Shown: in pieces, positions 4,181-20,666 of the stretch
Numbering within the stretch: position 1 is the first letter of the stretch
Layout of the letters: every line of letters starts with the position of its first letter
Assembly: GCA_028712255.1 (NCBI GenBank)
Contig: JAQTQJ010000001.1
Location: 12,366 to 76,365, forward strand
Origin: Candidatus Omnitrophota bacterium
GTDB lineage: Bacteria > Omnitrophota > Gorgyraeia > Gygaellales > Profunditerraquicolaceae
Direction of reading: 5' to 3'
Length of the DNA: 64,000 nucleotides
The notes under the pieces: generated by a model
What the model saw: only the letters and a program-made list of their open reading frames with translations
What the model was told of the DNA's origin: nothing
The model's database searches: none
Made by a program: the position numbers and the translations under genes

Positions 4181-5455
4181 ATGCGGATTTTAGTAGTAGG
4201 CTCTGGTGGCAGAGAGCATGCGTTAGTCTGGAAGATTAGCCAATCAAAATTAGTGGATAAGATTTTCTGCGCTCCCGGTAATGGCGGGATCAGCCAGCTT
4301 TCCGAATGCATTGATATAAAAGCTGAAGATGTGTTTGGTCTACTTAAATTTGCGCAAAAAGAAAAAATTGATTTGACCGTAGTCGGGCCGGAGGTAGCTT
4401 TATCATTAGGGATTGTCGATGAGTTTGAAAAAGCGCATCTGGCAATTTTTGGTCCAAATAAGTTAGCTGCGAATTTAGAAGCAAGCAAGATTTTTTCTAA
4501 GGAGCTGATGGCAAAATATAAAGTGCCCACAGCTAATTTTAAAATATTCGATAGTGCTGATGAGGCAAAAAAATATATTGAGAAGATCGGCGCGCCTTGC
4601 GTAGTTAAGGCAGATGGATTGGCCGCGGGCAAAGGCGTGGTTGTGGCTAAAACCGTTGATGAGGCAAAAGATGCCGTGACGGCGATGATGCAGGATAAGG
4701 TTTTCGGTGATGCCGGCAAAAGAATAATTATTGAAGAGTGCCTTACAGGCCAAGAAGCATCTATCCTTGTAATTACAGATTCAAAAGAGGTGGTGGCTTT
4801 GGCATCGGCACAGGACCACAAAAGAGTATTTGATAATGACCAAGGGCCTAACACCGGCGGAATGGGCGCTTATTCACCTGCGTCTATAGTTACAGCGGAT
4901 CTTTTTAAAGAGATAATGAAGAAAATAATTTATCCTACCATTGATGGCTTGGCTAAAGAGGGAATAGATTACCGGGGAGTGTTGTACGCCGGAGTAATGT
5001 TGACTAAGGATGGACTAAAAACCTTAGAGTTCAACGTTCGCTTCGGGGACCCTGAAACTGAGGCAATATTACCCAGATTAAAATCAGATTTAGTAGAGGT
5101 AATGTTAGCAACTAGCCAGGGGAAACTTTCAAAAATAAGGACTTTGGAATGGGACAGCCGTGCCTGTGTTTGTGTGGTTTGTGTCAGCGCAGGTTATCCG
5201 GGTAATTATACTAAAGATAAAGAAATCAGCGGGCTTGATCAGGCTGCTAAGTTAGATGACGTAATTGTTTTCCATGCCGGAACCAAGAAAGTCGGAAATA
5301 AAATTGTAACCAGCGGCGGTAGAGTTTTAGGAGTAACCGGTTTAGGCGCCACAATTAAGGATGCCATCAATCGAACGTATGCGGCGGTAGAAAAAATAAA
5401 TTTCGAAGGAATGCATTTTAGAAAAGATATAGGATCTAAAGCAGTAAAATTCTAA
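4181..5455 (+). CDS. purD: phosphoribosylamine--glycine ligase
   Basis: MRILVVGSGGREHAL start, ATP-grasp core; 424 aa. Confidence 0.9.
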   Translation: MRILVVGSGGREHALVWKISQSKLVDKIFCAPGNGGISQLSECIDIKAEDVFGLLKFAQKEKIDLTVVGPEVALSLGIVDEFEKAHLAIFGPNKLAANLEASKIFSKELMAKYKVPTANFKIFDSADEAKKYIEKIGAPCVVKADGLAAGKGVVVAKTVDEAKDAVTAMMQDKVFGDAGKRIIIEECLTGQEASILVITDSKEVVALASAQDHKRVFDNDQGPNTGGMGAYSPASIVTADLFKEIMKKIIYPTIDGLAKEGIDYRGVLYAGVMLTKDGLKTLEFNVRFGDPETEAILPRLKSDLVEVMLATSQGKLSKIRTLEWDSRACVCVVCVSAGYPGNYTKDKEISGLDQAAKLDDVIVFHAGTKKVGNKIVTSGGRVLGVTGLGATIKDAINRTYAAVEKINFEGMHFRKDIGSKAVKF

Positions 5456-5461
5456 GTATCT

Positions 5462-5543
5462 GTGTCATTGCGAGTCCGCCGAAGGCGGACGAAGCAATCT
5501 AATAAAAGATTGCTTCGTCGCTGTCGCTCCTCGCAATGACACC
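5462..5543. repeat. interspersed nested-palindrome element, full copy (GTGTCATTGCGAG-TCCGCCgaagGCGGAC-GAAGCAATCT aataaa AGATTGCTTC-...-CTCGCAATGACAC)
   Basis: seen in sequence; same termini recur at 12 or more other loci in this window. Confidence 0.85.
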
Positions 5544-10895: not shown

Positions 10896-12728
10896 ATGCC
10901 TCAACCCAATTACATCTCTAACGAAATGTCCGCTTGCCTCAAGAGCTACTGGGGTTACACCCAGTTTCGGCCTTGGCAGGAGGATACTATTTTGGCCATT
11001 CTCGATGAGCGGGAAACCTTGACCATCCTACCCACCGGCGGCGGCAAATCGCTATGTTTTCAGCTTCCGGCTTTGTTAAAGGATGGTATGGCAGTAGTTA
11101 TCTCACCCCTAATTTCTCTAATGAAGGATCAAGTCGATGGCCTTAAAGATATGGGTATCTCCGCCGAATGCCTTAACTCCAGTCAGACCGCCAGCCAGCA
11201 GCGCGCGGTGATCGAGCGTATCCGCGACAGTCAGATTAAACTTTTGTATATTTCTCCTGAACGCCTGCAAACTGAAGAGACTATGGAGTTATTAAGATCA
11301 GCCACTTTGTCATTCTTTGTGATCGATGAAGCGCATTGCATTAGCCATTGGGGCCATGATTTTCGGGATGAATACCGCCAGCTCGGTAATATCAAAGATA
11401 ATTTCCCGGGAATAAATATTCATGCTTTTACCGCTACCGCCACCAAAGAAGTCCAGGAAGATATTCTTAGCCAGCTTAGGTTCGTTAGCCCGCGGATCAA
11501 CATCGCCTCAGTTGACCGTCCCAATCTGGCCTATCGGGTTATGCCTCGGCAGAGTATTATTCCTCAGCTGACTGAAGTTTTAGAGAAGCATTCTAAAGAA
11601 GCCGGGATCATTTATTGCCTGCGCCGCAAAGACGTGGATGATATTTCCCAAAAGCTAAATAAATTAGGATATAAAAATTTGCCTTACCACGCAGGGCTAA
11701 CCGACGAAGAGCGTCATGCCAACCAGGAGCGTTTTATCCGCGAAGAAGTCAATATTATCGTCGCCACTGTAGCTTTTGGCATGGGCATCGACCGTTCGGA
11801 TATCCGTTTTGTAATTCACGCCGCTATGCCCAAGAGTATCGAGCATTACCATCAGGAAACCGGACGCGCCGGCCGGGACGGTTTGCCTTCATACTGCTAC
11901 ATGTTTTACGGAGGGGGAGATTTCCGAGTCTGGGAATTTTTCTCCAAACAGTCTGCCAATCGCCAGGTCATGCTGGATAAATTAAGGATTATGTATAATT
12001 TTTGCACTCAGCCCCAATGCCGGCATAAAGTTTTCGTCAATTACTTTGGCCAGCAATATCAGCAGCCAACTTGTCAGGCCTGTGATTATTGCCTGGGCGA
12101 AGTGGATATGGTTGATGATCCGTTGCAGCTGGGCCAAACAATACTTAATTGTGTCGCCACCGTTAGATACGGCGATGACCAGGGTTTTGGCGCCGGATAC
12201 CTAGCTAATGTTTTAAAAGGAAACATCACCGACCAGATCACGAGATGGGGACACGATGCTCATCCAAATTTTGGTACAATGTCTAGCCAAACGCTTAATT
12301 TTATCCGCTACCTGATCGAACAGCTTATCGGCCAGGGTTTCTTGGAACGTCAGGGCGAATATGATACTCTTGGTTTAACTGATTTTGGCCAGAAACTTCT
12401 AAGCGGAGAGGTGGCTCCGATATTAGCCAAGCCACTAGTCGCTGAGAAAAAGAAAGCCATCAGCGCCCGCCAAAAAGCCAAAAAAGCCCAAGATTTCGCC
12501 GGGGTGGATGAGGAATTATTCGAATTACTCCGCGCCAAACGATCCGAATTAGCCAGAAAACAAGGCGTCCCCGCCTACATCATCTTCGGCGACAAGTCGC
12601 TAAAGGATATGGCCACCCGCAAGCCCACCACCCGAGCAGCCTTCTCCGAGGTCTTCGGGGTCGGTGAACACAAACTAAAAACCTACGCCGATCAGTTCAT
12701 AAGCGTGATCAAACAGCATATCAAATAG
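10896..12728 (+). CDS. recQ: ATP-dependent DNA helicase RecQ
   Basis: helicase motifs (TGGGKSLCFQ, DEAHCISHWGHDFR), zinc-binding C-x-C cluster, C-terminal HRDC-like region. Confidence 0.9.
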   Translation: MPQPNYISNEMSACLKSYWGYTQFRPWQEDTILAILDERETLTILPTGGGKSLCFQLPALLKDGMAVVISPLISLMKDQVDGLKDMGISAECLNSSQTASQQRAVIERIRDSQIKLLYISPERLQTEETMELLRSATLSFFVIDEAHCISHWGHDFRDEYRQLGNIKDNFPGINIHAFTATATKEVQEDILSQLRFVSPRINIASVDRPNLAYRVMPRQSIIPQLTEVLEKHSKEAGIIYCLRRKDVDDISQKLNKLGYKNLPYHAGLTDEERHANQERFIREEVNIIVATVAFGMGIDRSDIRFVIHAAMPKSIEHYHQETGRAGRDGLPSYCYMFYGGGDFRVWEFFSKQSANRQVMLDKLRIMYNFCTQPQCRHKVFVNYFGQQYQQPTCQACDYCLGEVDMVDDPLQLGQTILNCVATVRYGDDQGFGAGYLANVLKGNITDQITRWGHDAHPNFGTMSSQTLNFIRYLIEQLIGQGFLERQGEYDTLGLTDFGQKLLSGEVAPILAKPLVAEKKKAISARQKAKKAQDFAGVDEELFELLRAKRSELARKQGVPAYIIFGDKSLKDMATRKPTTRAAFSEVFGVGEHKLKTYADQFISVIKQHIK

Positions 12729-12757
12729 GGACTGTCCCCGAAGGGGACTGTCCCTAT
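12727..12757 (+). terminator. hairpin GGGACTGTCCCC-gaag-GGGACTGTCCC directly after recQ stop
   Basis: seen in sequence; same arm sequence as 10050 hairpin. Confidence 0.6.
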
Positions 12758-12768
12758 TCCGTATTCCG

Positions 12769-12832
12769 TCGTCATTCTGAGGGAGTCCGCCAACGTTCTG
12801 TGGCGGACGACGAAGCAATCTTTTTGGAACAT
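12769..12832. repeat. nested-palindrome element, left-half variant (GTCATTCTGAGG...GACGAAGCAATCT)
   Basis: cgtcgtcattctgagggagtccgccaacgttctgtggcggacgacgaagcaatct. Confidence 0.75.
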
Positions 12833-13062
12833 TACTGCTACCCGGAAACTGTTCTAGCGTTTTCTTTTTTCGATTCCATGGTATAATAAAACACATAGAA
12901 AGATAATGATTGACTGAGTAAAATAAAATGATAGAATCAAAAATGAAAGTCAGGTGTGGTACGTTTGAAGGGGGAATCTGCCACGTTAAAATAATCCAAA
13001 CCTTCGCTAAAAAGAGCGGAGGTTTTTTGTTTTTAGGCTCGTTCTATTCGTAAATTTGTAAT

Positions 13063-13509
13063 ATGGGGTTAATCATGAAAGCTTGTATAAAAGAAATCAT
13101 CGTTGATAAAATAAATAAATCTGAATGGTGGCATGTGCCGCCTCAGGATTCCAGGGCATATAGTAAACGTGGTAAGTTTTTGGCATCGACTTATCAACAG
13201 GCAGAATTTTATGGAAGGCCAAGTGATACTCCTGAGAGTGTATTCATTTCTAATCCTATCTATGGTTTTTCCGAACGAGAAATTCTTATGCAATTGTTCC
13301 CGAATGGGCATAATATGCAATTGCTTGACCAATTGGAGAATGAAAAATTCTGGTATCAGGAAAGGATAGATTTAGACGCTAAGATGTTTGAGAGAGCTAA
13401 ATTCCTAGGTTACGATGCCATTGTTCTTATGACTCCGTCTGGAAAAAAAGATCTTAAAAAGAATAGAAAACCACGTTCGATCGAACTTAATTTATTATGT
13501 ACTCAATAA
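13063..13509 (+). CDS. hypothetical protein, first gene of R-M-like operon
   Basis: 148 aa, no recognisable domain; 4 nt before the Dam-like MTase gene. Confidence 0.3.
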   Translation: MGLIMKACIKEIIVDKINKSEWWHVPPQDSRAYSKRGKFLASTYQQAEFYGRPSDTPESVFISNPIYGFSEREILMQLFPNGHNMQLLDQLENEKFWYQERIDLDAKMFERAKFLGYDAIVLMTPSGKKDLKKNRKPRSIELNLLCTQ

Positions 13510-13512
13510 TTC

Positions 13513-14454
13513 ATGGAATATAGAATGATTACGGCGTTAAAGCAAGCTAAGCCGTTTCTAAAATGGGCAGGAGGTAAGGGGCAGCTCCTCAACCAATTTA
13601 AGACATATTTTCCTCTGGAACTAAACGGCAAGGGGATTATTAAACATTATTATGAGCCATTTCTAGGCAGCGGAGCTGTTTTTTTCTGGGTCAAACAAAA
13701 TTGTAAACTGAAAGACGCTTTTATTAACGAATTTAACCCTGATATATATTTGTGTTATGCGGCAATCCAAAACAGTGTTGAGAAAGTAATTAAGTCGTTG
13801 CGAGCATTGGAGAAAAAATATTATTCTTTTGATAGTGTAGCCCAAGAAGAATTATATTATGAAATTAGGCACAAGTATAATGTTACGAGAAAGAATATAG
13901 ATTTTAAGCATTCTCAGGTTAAGAATTATCTTAATCGAGCCGCATCAACTATTTTTTTAAATCGTACTTGTTTTAATGGATTATACAGGGTTAATTCCAA
14001 GGGAGATTTTAATGTTCCTTTCGGCAGGTATAAAAATCCAACCATTTGTAATGATGATAATCTTAGGGCAGTAAGTGAGCTTTTGCAGGGAGCAGTAATA
14101 ACTAATGATGATTTCGGCGTAGTCGAGCGGCAAATCAAAGCATCATCTTTTGTTTACTTCGATCCCCCGTATAGGCCTTTGAATAAAACATCCAATTTTA
14201 CTTCATATTCTGCCAGTGAGTTTAATGATAGTGAACAGCAACGTCTTTCTGCTGTGTTTAAAAAGTTAAATAACATTAATGGCGTAAAACTTATGCTTAG
14301 CAATTCTGACCCTAAGAATGAGGATAAGGACGATAATTTTTTTGATAAGCTATATAGTGGTTTTCGCATTGAGCGTCTAAAAGCTCGAAGAATGATAAAC
14401 TGTGATGCTTCAAAACGGAGCGAGATTAACGAGATTCTGGTCATGAATTATTAA
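13513..14454 (+). CDS. Dam-family (alpha-class) DNA adenine methyltransferase
   Basis: LKWAGGKGQLL...EPFLGSGAVFF (motif I) and FVYFDPPY (motif IV) in Dam/D12 order. Confidence 0.8.
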   Translation: MEYRMITALKQAKPFLKWAGGKGQLLNQFKTYFPLELNGKGIIKHYYEPFLGSGAVFFWVKQNCKLKDAFINEFNPDIYLCYAAIQNSVEKVIKSLRALEKKYYSFDSVAQEELYYEIRHKYNVTRKNIDFKHSQVKNYLNRAASTIFLNRTCFNGLYRVNSKGDFNVPFGRYKNPTICNDDNLRAVSELLQGAVITNDDFGVVERQIKASSFVYFDPPYRPLNKTSNFTSYSASEFNDSEQQRLSAVFKKLNNINGVKLMLSNSDPKNEDKDDNFFDKLYSGFRIERLKARRMINCDASKRSEINEILVMNY

Positions 14455-14465
14455 ATCAAAGGTAT

Positions 14466-15032
14466 TTGAACATTGATAAGGAGCTATGTATGAAAACTGG
14501 TGGTTTAGGCGGAGCAAAAACATTAACAGGCCTGCATTTTGAAAGAAAAGTTGATTTTCAGCAGCTTATTGGCGATATTGCAGGCTATGAAGTTAAAACA
14601 GCCCTGGGAAAATCCGGAAAGGGAGTTTTCTTTGAGGGGAAGTTGGTTGCGAGATGTTTTAGGAAATATGAATTTTATAAATTTTTAACCGAGTCTAATG
14701 TTGATTGGAAAAAAATGATTGCAAAGAGACTTTTGCCCGATGACGCATTATTGGTTATTGTCCGTGAAACCCTATTTATTATTGAGGTTAAGTATCAACA
14801 AGTTGGTGGTTCAGTTGATGAGAAATTACAGACTTGTGACTTTAAGCGTAAACAGTATTTTAAGCTGGTTTCTTCACTTGGGTTAAAAGTAGAATATGTT
14901 TATGTTTTAAATGATTGGTTCAGAAAACCGGAATATAAAGATGTATTAGATTATATACATAGCGTGAATTGTCACTATAGGTTTAATGAGCTTCCTATGG
15001 CATGGCTTGGATTACCACTCAAAAAAGCATAA
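14466..15032 (+). CDS. putative PD-(D/E)xK nuclease, candidate restriction endonuclease
   Basis: PDDALLVIVRETLFIIEVKYQQ fits the D-x(n)-ExK catalytic pattern; sandwiched between two MTase genes; no nameable family. Confidence 0.4.
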   Translation: MNIDKELCMKTGGLGGAKTLTGLHFERKVDFQQLIGDIAGYEVKTALGKSGKGVFFEGKLVARCFRKYEFYKFLTESNVDWKKMIAKRLLPDDALLVIVRETLFIIEVKYQQVGGSVDEKLQTCDFKRKQYFKLVSSLGLKVEYVYVLNDWFRKPEYKDVLDYIHSVNCHYRFNELPMAWLGLPLKKA

Positions 15033-15818
15033 ATGGAAAACAAGTGCGAGCAGGATGATTTAGAGCTTCAGACTACAACAGTATGGTCATTCCCCAATCG
15101 CGGTAAATGGTTAACGCATAACGCTAAGTATCGTGGTAATTGGGCCCCTCAAATCCCCAATAATCTCATCCGGCTTTATTCTAAAGAAGGCGACACTGTT
15201 TTAGACCCAATGGTTGGCAGTGGTACTACAATGATTGAAGCAAAATCATTGGGCCGGAGAGGAATAGGTTTTGATATCCATCTCGAAGTTATCAAACTTG
15301 CTCAGGAATCATGTAAATTTGATTGTGACAAATGTTATGAGTCGGTCATTAAACACGGGGATGCCCGGGATCTAAAATCCGTAGAAGGCGAAAGCATTGA
15401 TTTAATTACTACTCATCCCCCATATTTAAACATTATTAAATATGGTGATAAAGAAATCGAAGGCGATCTCTCTGCAATTTACAGTCTTTCGAAATTTTGT
15501 GATGAGATAGAAAAAGTCGCTCTGGAATGTTATCGTGTTCTCAAGTCTGGTAAATATTGTGCAATCCTCATAGGAGATACGCGTCGTAGGCGGCATTATG
15601 TTCCGCTTGCCTTTAATGTTATGAACCGTTTTCTTAAGGCTGGGTTTATTCTCAAGGAAGACATTATAAAGCTTCAGCATAATTGTTCCACAACTAAGTA
15701 TTGGAACGCGCAGGAAAAAGATTTCTTACTCATTATGCATGAGCATCTATTTGTTTTTCGTAAAATAGGGAAGGAAGAACAGAGTGGCATCTTTAAGGAT
15801 AGTAGTGCGATTAATTGA
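15033..15818 (+). CDS. SAM-dependent methyltransferase, gamma-type (DPMVGSGTT ... TTHPPY), second MTase of the cassette
   Basis: FxGxG SAM motif about 75 residues before an (D/H)PPY catalytic motif; UPF0020/N6-N4 MTase-like. Confidence 0.55.
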   Translation: MENKCEQDDLELQTTTVWSFPNRGKWLTHNAKYRGNWAPQIPNNLIRLYSKEGDTVLDPMVGSGTTMIEAKSLGRRGIGFDIHLEVIKLAQESCKFDCDKCYESVIKHGDARDLKSVEGESIDLITTHPPYLNIIKYGDKEIEGDLSAIYSLSKFCDEIEKVALECYRVLKSGKYCAILIGDTRRRRHYVPLAFNVMNRFLKAGFILKEDIIKLQHNCSTTKYWNAQEKDFLLIMHEHLFVFRKIGKEEQSGIFKDSSAIN

Positions 15819-15833
15819 GAAGTATGCTGTTGG

Positions 15834-16406
15834 GTGAGGTTAAAAATGGTTAAAGAAAAATTACCAGATATGAGTTTTAAAAGAGAGGGGTTAATTCATC
15901 AACCTTTAAAGACGTTTAAGGTCAATGGTTCTACAATTATCGCTGTCTATCGGGGTACATTGAGTACGCTTGATATATTGATAAAATATAGACAGAAGTC
16001 AAAGGATAAGAGGATGTGGTCTCGGATTAGAACCCCGAAGCATATTCATTGGACTGTTGATATTTTGATGAAAATGCAATCTTATGGAGATTTAACTAAA
16101 GAATTCATGGATTTTTTCGTCAGTATCTGGAATAAAACCGTTCCTCTTAAAAATGAAGTTGAAAGGCAATCATTAGATCTTGAAGGAATGCTGAATATTA
16201 GTAGAGTGGAAATAGGAAAATTCCAGAAGTTAAGCGAAAAGGGAGAGTATAGCGTAAGATTTTTGATACTCTTGGCTAAATTGTTAATGTTGCAAGAAAA
16301 AACAAATAGAGCTGATGCATATATGTTTAAACGCGTTTTGGACGGTTTAAGGAAGGAAGAAGATTTATTCCATATTCTGGCTACTGCTACCTTGGGCAAA
16401 AGATAG
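15834..16406 (+). CDS. hypothetical protein (last gene of R-M-like operon)
   Basis: 190 aa, no recognisable domain. Confidence 0.3.
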   Translation: MRLKMVKEKLPDMSFKREGLIHQPLKTFKVNGSTIIAVYRGTLSTLDILIKYRQKSKDKRMWSRIRTPKHIHWTVDILMKMQSYGDLTKEFMDFFVSIWNKTVPLKNEVERQSLDLEGMLNISRVEIGKFQKLSEKGEYSVRFLILLAKLLMLQEKTNRADAYMFKRVLDGLRKEEDLFHILATATLGKR

Positions 16407-16475
16407 GTAAAGGGAATTTTGGGTCCACAGAATTGCAAAATTGATAGTTTTTAAAGTGTTTCGCTAGATAAAAAA

Positions 16476-17117
16476 TTGATGTTTTCAGAATTAAGTCTCA
16501 ATAAAATAATTATGAAGAAAAGTAAAAAAATAAAACAAGAACGTTTCCATTACTCTTTGCAAATGGAGATGGCTGCTTGGGAACTTTATGGTATGAATAA
16601 GCGGCATGGAATGGCAAGCGCGTTTCAGAACTGTTCCTTCTTTAAGAAAGAGTGTAAAAATTTTATGAACAAAATTAGAAAGAGAATAAATCAGATAGTT
16701 ACCACGGATGAACTCTTCCGAGAAAATTTGAATGCTGATCTTGATAGTATAGAGAGAGAATTAAAATATTGTTCTAAAAATAATAATAACGATATTGATA
16801 TAATTGGTAAATTAATTAGTTTAGTTTCGCATCTTTTGGGTTGGGATCATTATGAGGGTGATTTTTATAGAACGCCGATGTTTTACCAGACAGAGGATCA
16901 GAAAGAAAAATCATTAAGAATTGTTGCTAAGCAAGGAGTCCCAAGCGAAACCGCGTTTCGCAGAAGAAATATTATTTTGCAATTACACAAAGAAGGTCTT
17001 TCATACCAACAGATTGGATTGATACTCGGTATTACTGATTCATGTGCAAAGCAGCTAGAAAAAGCAAGTCACTTAGATAAGTGGCATGAAGAAGAATTAA
17101 AAAGAAAGTCTCATTAG
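16476..17117 (+). CDS. hypothetical protein with C-terminal sigma-region-4/LuxR-like HTH
   Basis: LSYQQIGLILGITDSCAKQLEKAS helix-turn-helix near C-terminus. Confidence 0.3.
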   Translation: MMFSELSLNKIIMKKSKKIKQERFHYSLQMEMAAWELYGMNKRHGMASAFQNCSFFKKECKNFMNKIRKRINQIVTTDELFRENLNADLDSIERELKYCSKNNNNDIDIIGKLISLVSHLLGWDHYEGDFYRTPMFYQTEDQKEKSLRIVAKQGVPSETAFRRRNIILQLHKEGLSYQQIGLILGITDSCAKQLEKASHLDKWHEEELKRKSH

Positions 17118-17171
17118 TAAAATAAGACTAAGTGAGGCTTCTAGGTTGTTCATTCGTTAAAAGTAATCTAA

Positions 17172-17588
17172 ATGTCCGTCTACATATATTGCATTAGAGA
17201 AAATTATCGGTATCAATCCTCAATAACCGGACGGGAATTTGAGAATGAGTGGGTTAAGTTGGCTCTGGATGGCGCGATTATTATAAAGGGAACAAATTCC
17301 CAAGGGTATGCTTGGGATGGGTGCAGTCCTAAGTTTAAAATAAAAGATATTTATATTGGTGTTCCTGAGGCGGTGTTGAATTTTGGCACTGGGCAGAGTA
17401 AAACTTATTATGCTTCTTTAGTTCATGATGTATTCTATCAATTTAGCAAAAAGGTTAGGTTATTTATTAAGCGTAAGGAAGTTGATAGAGAGTTTTATGC
17501 TATTTTAAAAAGGGATGGTTTTAGGTTTGCGGGGTTGTATTATTTTTTTGTGCGCTTGTTTGGGTGGGTATGGTGGGGGAGGAGATAA
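17172..17588 (+). CDS. DUF1353-like phage-associated protein
   Basis: WDGCSPKF and LVHDVFYQ motifs reminiscent of DUF1353; weak. Confidence 0.3.
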   Translation: MSVYIYCIRENYRYQSSITGREFENEWVKLALDGAIIIKGTNSQGYAWDGCSPKFKIKDIYIGVPEAVLNFGTGQSKTYYASLVHDVFYQFSKKVRLFIKRKEVDREFYAILKRDGFRFAGLYYFFVRLFGWVWWGRR

Positions 17589-17610
17589 GTATTTAAGTAG
17601 GGCGTCAATT

Positions 17611-17753
17611 AGATTGCTTCGTCGTCCGCCACAGGGCGTTGGCGGACTCCTCGCAATGACACAGGAGGATGGCGGACTTAGAATGACGGAAGAACAGGTG
17701 GCTCAGAATGACGGGGGGATGTATACATAATCAGTTGTGAGCTTAGAATGACT
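17611..17753. repeat. nested-palindrome element right half followed by degenerate tandem GAATGAC units
   Basis: agattgcttcgtcgtccgccacagggcgttggcggactcctcgcaatgacac ... ttagaatgacgg ... ctcagaatgacgg ... cttagaatgactg. Confidence 0.75.
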
Positions 17754-17773
17754 GAAGATATATAGAAATTTTC

Positions 17774-17813
17774 TGTTAGATTTTGCCTTTTCTTGCGTCA
17801 GTTGTAGTAAGAG
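17774..17813 (+). promoter_or_regulatory. conserved motif TGTTAGAT-N14-CGTCAGTTGTAGTAAG (copy 2 of 4), upstream of bro-N gene
   Basis: seen in sequence. Confidence 0.5.
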
Positions 17814-17844
17814 GATAATAATAACGCAGGAAAAGGAGGATAGC

Positions 17845-18669
17845 ATGGAGACGAAGATGGCGGTATTTAAAGGAAAAGGGATACGGAAAGTCATTTATAA
17901 TAATGAATGGTGGTTTGTGATTGAAGATGTAGTTATTGCTCTTATTGATTCAGGTGATCCTAAGCAGTATGTTCAAAGAATGAAACAAAGAGATCCGGAA
18001 CTGGCTAAAGGGTGGGTACAAATTGTACATACCCTTGAAATTCACACAGAAGGTGGAAAGCAAAAGATGAATTGCGCTAATACAGAAGGAGTTTTTCGTA
18101 TTATTCAGTCAATACCATCTCCCAAAGCAGAGCCGTTTAAACGTTGGTTGGCTAAAGTTGGTTATGAGCGAGTGCAGGAAATTGAGAATCCGGAGTTGGC
18201 AACCAAACGGACAAGGATGCTCTATAAACTCAAAGGATATCCCGATAGCTGGATTGAAAAACGTATGCGCGGTATTGCTATTCGTGAAGAACTTACGGAT
18301 GAATGGCAGAAACGCGGTGCGCAAGAAAAAAAGGATTACGAAATTTTAACTTCAGAAATATCAAAAGCTACCTTTGGGATTACGCCTGGCCAGTATAAGA
18401 AGATAAAACGGTTAAAACGTGAAAATCTGCGTGACCATATGGATGATTTTGAGCTTATCTTTACAATGCTTGGAGAAAGGTCAACTACCGAAATTCATCG
18501 CACTGAAGATTCGCAAGGTGTGCCGAAGCTTAAAAGCGATGCCAAGGCCGGAGGAGATATTGCCGGCAATGCCAGAAAACAATTGGAAAAAAGAATAAAA
18601 AGGCCGATTGTTTCAAGAGATAATTTTTTGGAGCAATCTAAAAGAGTCAAAAATTTGCCTTATAAATAA
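17845..18669 (+). CDS. phage antirepressor-like protein, Bro-N domain with KilA-C/ORF6C-like C-terminal part
   Basis: N-terminal FKGKGIRKVIYNNEWWFVIEDVVIALI (Bro-N); phage-type C-terminal domain. Confidence 0.6.
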   Translation: METKMAVFKGKGIRKVIYNNEWWFVIEDVVIALIDSGDPKQYVQRMKQRDPELAKGWVQIVHTLEIHTEGGKQKMNCANTEGVFRIIQSIPSPKAEPFKRWLAKVGYERVQEIENPELATKRTRMLYKLKGYPDSWIEKRMRGIAIREELTDEWQKRGAQEKKDYEILTSEISKATFGITPGQYKKIKRLKRENLRDHMDDFELIFTMLGERSTTEIHRTEDSQGVPKLKSDAKAGGDIAGNARKQLEKRIKRPIVSRDNFLEQSKRVKNLPYK

Positions 18670-18678
18670 CCAAATCAA

Positions 18679-18706
18679 TAGCGGATTCAGAATGACTGAA
18701 GATATA
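18679..18706. repeat. fragment of nested-palindrome element (TTCAGAATGACTGAAG)
   Basis: seen in sequence. Confidence 0.5.
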
Positions 18707-18776
18707 TAGTACGGCAATCTTTCCTTTTGCTCCCTATTTCTTAAACCTCAATAACAATAAAAAGGTTAGTTATAAA

Positions 18777-20666
18777 ATGGCGTTTATCAGTTTACAGGAA
18801 GTTAATCTTGCGTTTAGCGGGCCGCTGATTTTTAATGGTTTAAATTTACAGCTGGAGCAGGGGGAACGTATTGCCCTGCTTGGCCGTAATGGCGCGGGAA
18901 AGACCACCTTAATGAAGGTGATGATTGGCCAGCAGCCGGTTGACGCGGGTACAGTTATCACGCAAAAAGGAATTCAGGTTGCTCATCTGCCGCAGGAGGT
19001 GCCTGTGGATATCACCGGGAATGTTTTTGATATCGTTCTTTCGGGGCTGGGCGCGCGGGCTGAACTTTTAAGCCAGCACCACCGCCTTACCCAGCGTCTG
19101 CAAACAGAGCAGACTCCGGAATTATTGAGGCAGCTTGATACTCTCCAAGATAAACTTAACCATACTGATAGTTGGGATGTGAATAATCAGGTAGAAGAGG
19201 CTATTGCCAAAATGAAACTGGATCCGGATAGCGATTTTTCCCTGTTGTCCGGAGGGCAGAAACGCCGGGCGCTTTTGGCTAGGGCTTTAGTGCTTAAACC
19301 GGAGGTTTTACTGCTGGATGAGCCGACTAACCATTTGGATATTGATTCCATGCTTTGGCTGGAAGGATTTTTGCTCAATTACCCGGGTACGGTTTTCTTT
19401 GTGACCCATGACCGGATGTTTATGACGCGTTTAGCTACTAGGATCATTGAGCTTGATCGGGGAAGGATATATAGTTGGTCATGCGACTATAAGACATTTC
19501 TTGAACGTAAACAAGCAGCTTTGGATATGGAGGAAGCCCGGGATAGCCGTTTTGATAAAAAATTAGCAGAAGAAGAGGTTTGGATTCGTAAAGGAGTTAA
19601 GGCGCGCAGGTGCCGCAATGAAGGCCGGGTTAAGGCGCTGGAGCGTTTACGTGAGGAGAAGAAGCAACAGCGTAAGGCAATCGGAGAAGTACGCATGCGC
19701 GCGCAGAAAGTTGACCCTTCGGGCCAGCGGGTGATTAAAGTCGCGCAACTTGGATTTAGTTTTGGGGAGAAATGCCTGGTTAGGGATTTTTCCACCCAAA
19801 TAATGCGGGGCGATAAGATCGGCGTGATCGGGCCCAACGGCAGCGGCAAGACAACCTTGTTACGGCTTCTGTTGGGGCAGCTTGAGCCGCAAAAAGGCAA
19901 GGTAACCTTGGGAACGAATTTGCAGGTTGCTTATTATGACCAGCTGCGCGAGCAACTGGATGAGGATGCAACTGTGGCCGAAAACGTCAACGGAGAATCT
20001 GACGCCATCGTGATTAACGGTAAACCCAAACATATCATCGGATACTTGCAGGATTTTTTGTTTACTCCGGACCGGGCGCGCACTCCGGTTAAGGTGCTTT
20101 CAGGCGGGGAGCGTAACCGTCTTTTTCTGGCGCGGTTATTTTCCAAGCCTTCAAATGTTTTAGTCATGGATGAGCCGACCAATGACCTGGACATTGAAAC
20201 TCTTGAGCTTTTGGAAGAATTATTGCTGGAGTATCCGGGAACCCTGCTTTTAGTAAGTCATGACCGAGTTTTTTTGAATAATGTAGTTACCTCGACTATG
20301 GTTTTGGAAGGGGATGGCCTAATTAATGAATATGCCGGAGGCTATGATGATTGGTTAAGCCAGCGAAAATTCGCCCAGCAGCCCGCGGTAAAAGCAAAAC
20401 CGAAAAAAGAAATTATCCGCCCCAAAAAACCGGTAGTCCCGCGTAAACTTACTTCTAAAGAACAGCATGAACTTGATAGCCTTGCTTCGGTAATCGAGAA
20501 AATAGAGAATGAGCAAAAACAGATATATGCTCACCTAGCGGATTTTAAATTTTACGAGAAGGATCCTGCAGAGATCGCCGGAACCAAGGTCAGATTAGAA
20601 TTATTATCAGATGAACTGGAAAAGGCCTACGCGCGCTGGGAGTATTTAGAGGAATTATCGGAATAA
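18777..20666 (+). CDS. uup: ABC-F family ATPase (Uup/EttA-like), two ABC domains
   Basis: two Walker A (GRNGAGKTT, GPNGSGKTT) and two LSGG signature motifs, C-terminal coiled coil. Confidence 0.85.
   Translation: MAFISLQEVNLAFSGPLIFNGLNLQLEQGERIALLGRNGAGKTTLMKVMIGQQPVDAGTVITQKGIQVAHLPQEVPVDITGNVFDIVLSGLGARAELLSQHHRLTQRLQTEQTPELLRQLDTLQDKLNHTDSWDVNNQVEEAIAKMKLDPDSDFSLLSGGQKRRALLARALVLKPEVLLLDEPTNHLDIDSMLWLEGFLLNYPGTVFFVTHDRMFMTRLATRIIELDRGRIYSWSCDYKTFLERKQAALDMEEARDSRFDKKLAEEEVWIRKGVKARRCRNEGRVKALERLREEKKQQRKAIGEVRMRAQKVDPSGQRVIKVAQLGFSFGEKCLVRDFSTQIMRGDKIGVIGPNGSGKTTLLRLLLGQLEPQKGKVTLGTNLQVAYYDQLREQLDEDATVAENVNGESDAIVINGKPKHIIGYLQDFLFTPDRARTPVKVLSGGERNRLFLARLFSKPSNVLVMDEPTNDLDIETLELLEELLLEYPGTLLLVSHDRVFLNNVVTSTMVLEGDGLINEYAGGYDDWLSQRKFAQQPAVKAKPKKEIIRPKKPVVPRKLTSKEQHELDSLASVIEKIENEQKQIYAHLADFKFYEKDPAEIAGTKVRLELLSDELEKAYARWEYLEELSE

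Follow-up and report, generated by a model that had tools for sequence, protein, structure and literature searches.

The five-gene cassette

The 64,000-nt stretch of DNA analysed here (the window) comes from Candidatus Omnitrophota and carries, between positions 13063 and 16406 of its plus strand, five open reading frames (ORF1 to ORF5). A reading of the sequence alone had described them as a tightly packed operon resembling a restriction-modification (R-M) system, in which two methylases of different type accompany a small PD-(D/E)XK nuclease. Our ORF check of the window found all five genes in place on that strand, and family matches, together with a PD...EVK motif, support the R-M assignment. 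Successive genes are separated by 3, 35 (11 with a TTG start), 0 and 27 (15 with a GTG start) nt. Shorter starts were preferred for ORF1, ORF3 and ORF5 on the basis of homologue lengths, NCBI gene calls (MDD5107911.1, MDD5107913.1 and MDD5107915.1, from a Candidatus Omnitrophota metagenome-assembled genome) and Shine-Dalgarno sequences: AAGGAG stands 6 nt 5′ of the ORF3 start at 14490, and GGTGAGG lies upstream of the ORF5 start at 15846. The genes are as follows (aa, amino acids; pI, isoelectric point).

13075-13509, plus strand: ORF1, 144 aa, pI 8.8, alternative start at 13063; putative R-M accessory protein
13513-14454, plus strand: ORF2 (M1), 313 aa; Dam-family, alpha-class D12 N6-adenine methylase
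14490-15032, plus strand: ORF3 (R1 candidate), 180 aa, alternative TTG start at 14466; candidate PD-(D/E)XK endonuclease
15033-15818, plus strand: ORF4 (M4, the second methylase or M2), 261 aa; circularly permuted N6_N4-type DNA methylase
15846-16406, plus strand: ORF5 (R2 candidate), 186 aa, pI 9.9, alternative GTG start at 15834

Two further loci, L103 and L104 (other loci are likewise given by L-numbers), one from a JGI and one from an ENA metagenome, contain all five genes in the order of the window, with identities of 64% for ORF1, 54% for the Dam gene, 86% for ORF3, 71% for M4 and 63% for ORF5. There the cassette lies between a metallophosphatase gene on one side and pseudouridine synthase and ribosomal protein genes on the other. 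The recurrence of the five-gene order between unrelated flanks indicates that the five genes travel together as a conserved unit, the 3′ limit of which is 16406. ORF1 to ORF5 are thus a real, conserved and mobile R-M cassette. The two outer genes, proposed from the sequence alone to be specificity, controller or accessory components, do belong to it; an accessory role still suits ORF1, whereas for ORF5 a nuclease is likelier (see below). The GC content of the block is 33-38%, compared with 47% for the flanking recQ and ABC-F genes and about 38-42% for the remaining window; because the window average is close to that of the cassette, base composition is weak evidence for a foreign origin or a genomic island.

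ORF2 passes the TIGR00571 Dam model (277.9 bits against a curated cutoff of 114.85), matches PF02086 (1.5e-61) and the PADLOC MTase_II/oMTase models (1e-90 to 1e-97), and has intact FLGSG and DPPY motifs. It is 46-48% identical to the Dam genes of cassettes in which the neighbouring gene is a DpnII-family nuclease (L088, 46%) or which contain ORF5 (L097-99). ORF4 matches PF01555 (N6_N4_Mtase) with 109 bits against a threshold of 26.7, in two pieces of permuted order, and the PADLOC MTase_II model PDLC03376 over its full length (6e-76). Motif I, DPMVGSGTT, precedes HPPY in this protein, an order that had already been read from the sequence and that the permuted PF01555 halves bear out. HPPY replaces the usual (D/N/S)PP(Y/F) in 13 of 13 orthologues (the window and L001, L002, L005, L006, L008, L015, L016, L021, L024, L026, L042 and L059), and a Dam gene always lies alongside the ORF4-type gene in the loci examined. 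Comparison of locus neighbours showed that ORF4 is not orthologous to the beta-class methylases of sister cassettes. By their sequence families, ORF2 and ORF4 are DNA methylases; by analogy with DpnM and DpnA, ORF2 may act on double-stranded and ORF4 on single-stranded DNA. Since they flank ORF3, intact methylase motifs adjoin a separate gene for a candidate endonuclease, as in Type II R-M systems. A PADLOC run gave Type II methylase matches for these two genes and none for ORF1, ORF3 or ORF5.

We consider it reasonably probable that the interval 13075-16406 represents a single Type II R-M cassette that moves horizontally and is akin to DpnII and MboI, with GATC as its most likely site; a promoter and leader at 12910-13035 probably belong to it as well. 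In such a system, host DNA would be protected by two adenine methylases, the Dam-family ORF2 and the permuted, HPPY-bearing ORF4, and unmethylated incoming DNA would be cut by two unrelated small endonucleases, ORF3 and ORF5. ORF1 would be an accessory to the methylases whichever nuclease family is present, acting in expression control or establishment.

Two candidate endonucleases

ORF3 carries the motif P83-D84...E99-V-K101. In an alignment of 71 divergent relatives D84 is the sole fully invariant residue, and E99, K101, Q103, G107, S108, D110, E111 and K112 are each at least 90% conserved. An AlphaFold model built on this deep alignment (predicted local distance difference test, pLDDT, 88; predicted template modelling score 0.84; a first model from a shallow alignment had pLDDT 70) has a beta-beta-beta-alpha-beta core, in which D84 opens strand 85-89 and E99 and K101 lie within strand 94-101. 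The catalytic motif is thus found on adjacent beta strands, as in PD-(D/E)XK enzymes. A Foldseek search of PDB gave weak matches (E 0.009-0.1), the top folds being mostly PD-(D/E)XK nucleases; the matches comprise SfsA, MunI, BstEII, the arenavirus and bunyavirus cap-snatching endonucleases, FokI, HincII and BsoBI. The ORF3 homologue in L092 (57% identical) passes Pfam PF20472, PDDEXK_11, with 29.7 bits against a gathering threshold of 23.7, and several database homologues carry a precomputed assignment to this family, of which we found no mention in the literature searched. Sequence and profile searches of PDB gave nothing meaningful for ORF3, and PADLOC and PHROGs returned no match. Homology of ORF3, taken as the longer 188-aa ORF, to a non-nuclease protein was looked for and not found, and neither was homology of the flanking ORFs to housekeeping functions. 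The motif and the modelled fold point to a PD-(D/E)XK endonuclease, and we regard ORF3 as a candidate restriction enzyme.

The family is large: at E <= 1e-3 it takes in 4,653 clusters of the 90% database, or 780 of those drawn at 50% identity, and all are named 'hypothetical'. Nearly all members are 165-190 aa long, and ORF3 is thus not the unusually short nuclease that it had seemed to be. Homologues in 80 genome loci from more than 15 phyla are 69-84% identical to the window protein, a pattern typical of horizontally moving R-M genes. When neighbouring genes were clustered across these 80 loci, an adenine methylase was adjacent in nearly all. In about 55 of the 80 a beta-class N6_N4 methylase gene lies directly upstream of the nuclease gene; the arrangement of the window, Dam-nuclease-M4, occurs in 13, and also in L003, where the contig ends inside M4; and six have the order Dam-beta methylase-nuclease, that of DpnII. 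The methylase-nuclease-methylase (M-R-M) order, taken for an oddity in the sequence-only reading, is therefore a standard arrangement.

When the ORF3 model was compared with BFVD by Foldseek, it matched uncharacterised entries 167-215 aa long (E 2e-8 to 3e-5, template modelling score at most 0.55, about 22% identity), namely G8DDE9, A0A7S6NXM7 (Bathycoccus sp. RCC716 virus 1), A0A6G6XN47 and A0A0N7KVQ2, at least one of them prasinoviral; the length is about 180 aa for the prasinoviral match at E 2e-8 (score 0.55). Judged by these model matches, the nuclease family may reach giant algal viruses.

ORF5 gave no match in Pfam, NCBIfam, PADLOC, PHROG or PDB, by sequence or profile searches. A metagenome scan with the single sequence as query found two close relatives, and the family as collected numbers 1,306 homologues of 177-194 aa, all named 'hypothetical'. 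Its invariant polar residues (D43, Y48, Q50, R62, H66, H68, D72, K76, E134, Q150, E151, K152 and N154) fit an enzyme. ORF5 is found with a beta methylase alone amid housekeeping genes in L082-84 (Dehalococcoidales) and, in another lineage, L100/101, and beside a fused double methylase in L085-87. In L097-99 the order is Dam-ORF5-M4, ORF5 standing in the nuclease slot (an HTH_3 gene precedes the cassette in L099). It also occurs where another nuclease or nuclease candidate is present: Dam-DpnII-ORF5-beta methylase, with overlapping stops and starts, in L088; beta methylase-MutH-like-ORF5 in L102; and beta methylase-ORF3-ORF5 in L036. Because ORF5 is the sole partner of the methylase in several lineages and substitutes positionally for the nuclease, a restriction endonuclease is the simplest reading. 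Thus, ORF5 is probably a second restriction endonuclease, from a family whose fold is not one of those recognised.

Alternatively, ORF5 could be an accessory to the methylases, such as a regulator that binds DNA or a protein that modulates methylation, which would leave ORF3 as the sole restriction enzyme. PDB profile, Pfam and hhalign searches gave ORF5 no match to a nuclease motif or fold, a recognisable nuclease is already there in the window, L036, L088, L102 and L103, and orphan methylases with small partner genes exist. In L082-84, L085-87, L097-99 and L100/101, however, the module contains no gene besides methylases other than ORF5, which stands exactly where sister cassettes have their nuclease. 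An accessory would also have to account for the many invariant acidic, basic and histidine residues, and for a family size and patchy phyletic spread like those of ORF3. We consider this alternative unlikely.

Attempts to place ORF5 in a known family were negative. By eye, the spacing Y35..Y48..R62-x3-H66..E134..N154 resembles GIY-YIG nucleases, with no support from models: a scan of 34 members for PF01541 was negative at E <= 5, as was the search of PDB profiles. Distant kinship to ORF3 was rejected for ORF5, ORF1 and the small c4 family described below (hhalign probabilities of 1.1%, 0.6% and 2.5%, respectively). Kinship of ORF5 to the c4/c13 family was not supported: hhalign picked out motifs that had been noticed by eye, at a probability of less than 1%. 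Neither the ORF5 nor the ORF1 family has a single relative in 2.9 million viral contigs, which fits a cellular defence cassette.

A second alternative keeps both nucleases and divides the cassette into a tandem of two independent R-M systems, Dam and ORF3 acting on GATC and ORF4 and ORF5 on another site; a separate target could account for the unusual HPPY methylase. Each nuclease candidate does lie directly 3′ of a methylase, ORF4 is non-orthologous to the beta methylases and has an invariant, atypical HPPY, and the fused methylase of L085-87 has an ORF4-like half beside the ORF5 homologue. The way in which the genes assort elsewhere speaks against this division. About 10 loci have Dam, ORF3 and an ORF4-type methylase and lack ORF5, which would leave ORF4 without its partner nuclease, and in the Dam-ORF5-M4 cassettes the two methylases share a single nuclease candidate. 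ORF5, moreover, pairs with an ordinary beta methylase alone and sits inside the Dam-DpnII-...-beta methylase cassette. In the ORF1-Dam-M4-c13 cassettes of L105/106, Dam and M4 are adjacent and share one c13-like partner, the only nuclease candidate there. We therefore hold two independent systems to be quite improbable, and prefer a single cassette with two nuclease candidates.

The c13-like gene belongs to the c4/c13 family, a recurrent small partner in sister cassettes. Its proteins are about 175-208 aa long and matched neither Pfam nor NCBIfam, and hhalign relates its two subgroups, c4 and c13, to each other (93%, E 3e-7). It may be another family of GATC nucleases. Members lie at:

L001, 7383-7907
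L005, 2390-2953
L006, 7368-7919
L007, 4553-5095
L011/L018, 4515-5090
L020, 1524-2063
L051, 6667-7209, minus strand
L061, 1639-2211
L070, 5275-5856, minus strand
L105, 6033-6659

Recognition site and related systems

The cassette is most likely specific for GATC, given the membership of ORF2 in the Dam family, the sharing of methylases with DpnII and MutH-like cassettes, a remnant in Neisseria and the depletion of GATC. The beta methylases are 51-62% identical to one another whether the accompanying nuclease is of the DpnII family, MutH/Sau3AI-like, ORF3 or ORF5; the DpnII-family nucleases of sister cassettes, seen in L088 and L090, match PF04556 at 4e-90. In the window GATC is the most depleted 4-bp palindrome, with 152 sites observed and 276 expected under a maximal-order Markov model (observed/expected ratio, O/E, 0.55). 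The O/E in pooled flanks of 71 other loci is 0.58, and only CTAG is more depleted there.

In Neisseria gonorrhoeae the leuS locus holds drg (DpnI family, 1.5e-77) and, next to it, two frameshifted genes: one for a beta methylase that shares 60% identity with the partner methylases of the family, the other for an ORF3 homologue (60-62%). It differs from the window in being decayed and in having no Dam-nuclease-M4 arrangement, no ORF1 and no ORF5. This dam/drg locus, NgoAXI, is assigned to GATC, and a G6mATC-dependent nuclease has taken the place of Dam in it (PMC4269198; PMC6789123), so that decay of a GATC methylase and nuclease pair there makes sense. Judged by its sequence, the unannotated pseudogene beside drg can be explained as what is left of the nuclease from an ancestral GATC system; PMC4269198 and PMC6789123 mention the truncated methylase and do not mention the nuclease remnant. 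Our copy of the locus, L081, is NZ_CP119140.1, 5981-16467, with the remnants at 4255-4956 and 4953-5487; the record is 2.17 Mb long, yet it is filed in a plasmid collection.

Several observations weigh against reading the five genes as one GATC system. ORF3 itself scores 23.2 bits with PF20472, 0.5 bit short of the gathering threshold of 23.7, and Foldseek gave it no PDB fold match at E < 1e-3. The absence of a nuclease match for ORF5 (see above) counts in the same direction, as does the fact that the ORF1, ORF3 and ORF5 families, all 'hypothetical' in the databases, are candidates by sequence and context. Neither adenine nor cytosine-N4 methylases typically have the HPPY seen in ORF4, and a terminator-like hairpin between the best promoter and ORF1 (see below) means that expression would not be straightforward. 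As for the site, the depletion is model-dependent, O/E for GATC in the window being 0.81 under a first-order model; it was measured in the window and the 71 pooled flanks, with no control set of genomes lacking the ORF3 family. Among curated models CcrM (GANTC) fits the beta methylases best, with a score far below its cutoff, and the sequence of these methylases alone thus does not fix GATC.

The last points would suit some other short recognition site with an adenine in it, for example GANTC, as for beta methylases like those of CcrM and HinfI, or that of a Dam-family variant such as CATG or GATATC; D12-class methylases with specificities besides GATC are known. Against such a site, ORF2 passes the Dam family model; methylases orthologous to one another are found with nucleases of two families specific for GATC, the DpnII family and the MutH/Sau3AI-like one; the remnant in Neisseria is at a dam/drg locus assigned to GATC (PMC6789123); and in the window GANTC is mildly depleted (O/E 0.83), CATG hardly so (0.96) and GATATC not at all. 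A site other than GATC is, on this evidence, very unlikely.

The same methylase and small-nuclease pairs could, in principle, form a methyl-directed, MutH-like strand-discrimination module serving repair and not defence. MutH-like proteins fill the same slot in some cassettes, and mismatch repair is directed by Dam methylation in some bacteria (PMC4269198). A repair module would not be expected, however, to be distributed as patchily as these pairs, to have an ORF3 that is 70-84% identical across more than 15 phyla, or to lie in variable neighbourhoods that include defence genes (AbiEii and Fic in L105). Furthermore, the Neisseria copy decayed exactly where a methylation-dependent nuclease was acquired, and GATC is depleted in the host genomes. 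All of these are hallmarks of selfish mobile R-M genes, and we give the repair explanation next to no credence.

The preferred reading, a single defence cassette, has known counterparts. The closest precedent for a GATC cassette with two methylases and two nucleases is SsuDAT1I of Streptococcus suis, reportedly a cassette spread by horizontal transfer, in which two methylases are accompanied by a pair of isoschizomeric endonucleases for GATC; these are reportedly of the DpnII/MboI type and not of the ORF3 or ORF5 families, and the system is not known to have an ORF1-like gene. R.MboI, of about 280 aa, belongs to the DpnII/MboI family, and the MboI system is not known to have ORF1- or ORF5-like genes. 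This system, from Moraxella bovis (mboA, mboB and mboC), is reported (Ueno et al. 1993) to be GATC-specific with the M-R-M order, the methylases flanking the endonuclease. The cassette would resemble the DpnII system of Streptococcus pneumoniae, which consists of dpnM, dpnA and dpnB with a single-strand role for DpnA (PMC4471560), as a Type II GATC system with two adenine methylases in one operon, the first gene being of the Dam (D12) class and the second methylase of the N6_N4 superfamily (PMC4471560 for gene content); six ORF3 relatives, moreover, have its M-M-R order. It differs in that ORF3 and ORF5 have no PF04556 match at E <= 1, ORF3 being about 100 aa shorter than the DpnII family, in the permuted second methylase with its HPPY and lack of orthology to the beta methylases, in the M-R-M order, and in the extra ORF1 and ORF5. 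Strictly speaking, the cassette falls outside the DpnII family. MutH/Sau3AI-like endonucleases share with ORF3 its slot in sister cassettes, whereas MutH has no sequence relation to ORF3 or ORF5.

The cassette is, then, an ordinary kind of R-M system assembled from uncharacterised parts. Convergent evolution among GATC enzymes (MboI, Sau3AI and CviAI) is already on record (PMC2441816). If the GATC assignment holds, at least five unrelated nuclease families (DpnII, MutH/Sau3AI-like, ORF3, ORF5 and c4/c13) would recognise this site and replace one another on a shared methylase chassis, with ORF3, ORF5 and c4/c13 as three added GATC families; nature would then offer an unusually rich example of convergence in sequence recognition. 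Very small (180-186 aa), abundant and highly conserved, the proteins of the ORF3 and ORF5 families are attractive for structural work and as compact GATC-cutting reagents. It may also be asked whether two nucleases for one site provide redundancy against phage anti-restriction proteins or serve different DNA modification states.

ORF1, the leader and the surroundings

ORF1 has 276 homologues of about 140-150 aa, all labelled 'hypothetical', and their invariant residues include W18, W19, H20, G33, F45-Y46-G47, P49, E67, R97, D101, P133 and E137. It had no match in Pfam, NCBIfam, PADLOC, PHROG or PDB. In every context examined ORF1 lies inside an R-M cassette with a nuclease candidate beside it. 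After a beta methylase gene it precedes DpnII (L090/91), a MutH-like gene (L094/95; L089, at a contig end, has ORF1-MutH-like only) or an ORF3-family gene (L092/93 and L010), and L029 has the order ORF1-beta methylase-ORF3. ORF1-Dam-ORF3-M4 is found in L015, to which the window and L103/104 add ORF5, and ORF1-Dam-M4-c13-like in L105/106. ORF1 thus spans four nuclease families (DpnII, MutH/Sau3AI-like, ORF3 and c13) and one methylase set, beta methylase or Dam with M4. With its four unrelated nuclease families and constant methylases, ORF1 is unlikely to be a direct partner of the nuclease and probably serves the system as a whole.

In sister cassettes the slot upstream of Dam can hold a regulator: an HTH_3 gene in L099 (2374-2583) and a LexA-like repressor (LexA DNA-binding domain with Peptidase_S24) in L002 (1803-2516), L006 (4421-5065) and L021 (4463-5092), which suggests SOS-linked or C-protein-like control of those R-M systems. 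Since ORF1 holds this regulator position, its likeliest role is in the control of expression or establishment, and a conserved non-nuclease accessory of this sort is our best guess. Like C (controller) genes, ORF1 either comes first in the operon or immediately precedes the nuclease gene. Unlike them, it is larger (144 aa) and is tied in every context to one methylase set, and a Pfam scan of 36 members found no helix-turn-helix (HTH) family, so that only its position matches that of a controller.

A weak signal of another kind comes from PF18760 (ART-PolyVal), seen in 4 of the 36 members with a best E of 0.0013 and below the gathering threshold of 31.2 bits; in the family member P0497 it reaches 18.1 bits and is collinear over residues 24-126. 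The window ORF1 and the family consensus gave no match to PF18760, and we treat the signal as a lead only. Followed to its end, it would make ORF1 a small enzyme, possibly with an ADP-ribosyltransferase fold and an H20/Y46/E137-like triad, contributing a third activity independent of the nuclease family, with ORF5 and c4/c13 as new nuclease folds; such an enzyme could, for example, act on DNA or on a protein of the host or of a phage, modifying it while the cassette establishes itself or when infection occurs. This is a long shot; if true, the cassette would give a view of several uncharacterised protein families that share one methylase chassis. ORF1, as a non-HTH controller or a new enzymatic activity, is the likeliest place for new biology in the cassette.

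Upstream of ORF1 lie two non-coding features.

12910-12937, plus strand: promoter-like site, TTGACT-16 nt-TAGAAT with an extended -10 TG; best sigma-70 match in the region (10/12)
12956-13035, plus strand: leader, 80 nt, non-coding; hairpin GUGGUA...UGCCAC with a G-rich loop, then a GC-rich terminator-like stem and a U-run

The first would act as a promoter, judging from its match to the consensus; a similar TTGACA...TATAAT occurs at the equivalent place in L024. The leader is 88-90% identical to the stretch directly upstream of Dam in L024 (4898-4975) and L026 (4896-4972), and among these three Omnitrophota loci its conservation exceeds that of the coding genes. Its fold energy is -28.1 kcal/mol (z -2.5), and a consensus fold is kept in the three sequences with one compensatory pair and two wobble swaps. 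Rfam gave no match on 12600-18900, leader included. The leader may be an attenuator limiting expression of the operon, or a small RNA, a reading that is only a lead because it draws on three sequences.

The cassette region is bracketed by recQ (10896-12728) and an ABC-F ATPase gene (18777-20666), both of about 47% GC. In L074, another Omnitrophota locus, recQ is found at 53-1828, about 3 kb upstream of a Dam-nuclease pair, and the vicinity of recQ may be a preferred insertion region.

Repeat copies had been thought to bound the block. Both are real and form a 45-nt inverted pair, 12782-12826 and 17606-17650, 91% complementary, but they belong to a dispersed family resembling repetitive extragenic palindromic (REP) elements, with the palindromic structure CATTGCGAG-(variable hairpin)-G(A/C)AGCAATC and at least 11 further copies in the window; this rules them out as transposon or cassette ends. 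Copies in the window are at 5466, 5508, 9404, 9440, 9983, 12782, 17612, 20785, 35173, 35514, 38425 and 49725, and others occur at loci of other organisms (L026, L045, L059 and L103). Spurious ORFs over the copies encode peptides like LLRRPPQ.

Three genes follow the cassette.

16476-17117: HTH-like gene (19.5 bits, below the Pfam threshold)
17172-17588: DUF1353-like gene (20.4 bits, below the Pfam threshold)
17845-18669: Bro-N gene (Bro-N, 53.6 bits, solid)

They had been taken for phage-like genes in one segment with the cassette. The Bro-N assignment stands, and those of the other two fall below threshold; none of the three recurs with the cassette, apart from a Bro-N homologue 3 kb off in L024, and the unit does not include them. 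For the Bro-N protein PADLOC gave a match to the defence candidate PDC-S13 (4e-107), so that the area around the cassette may yet be one of variable or defence genes; the protein also matches phrog_15286. Direct repeats of 37 nt, 17729-17765 and 18673-18709, 81% identical, lie on either side of the Bro-N gene and contain AGAATGAC, a motif that recurs within 17650-17730; gene and repeats may constitute a separate small mobile cassette.

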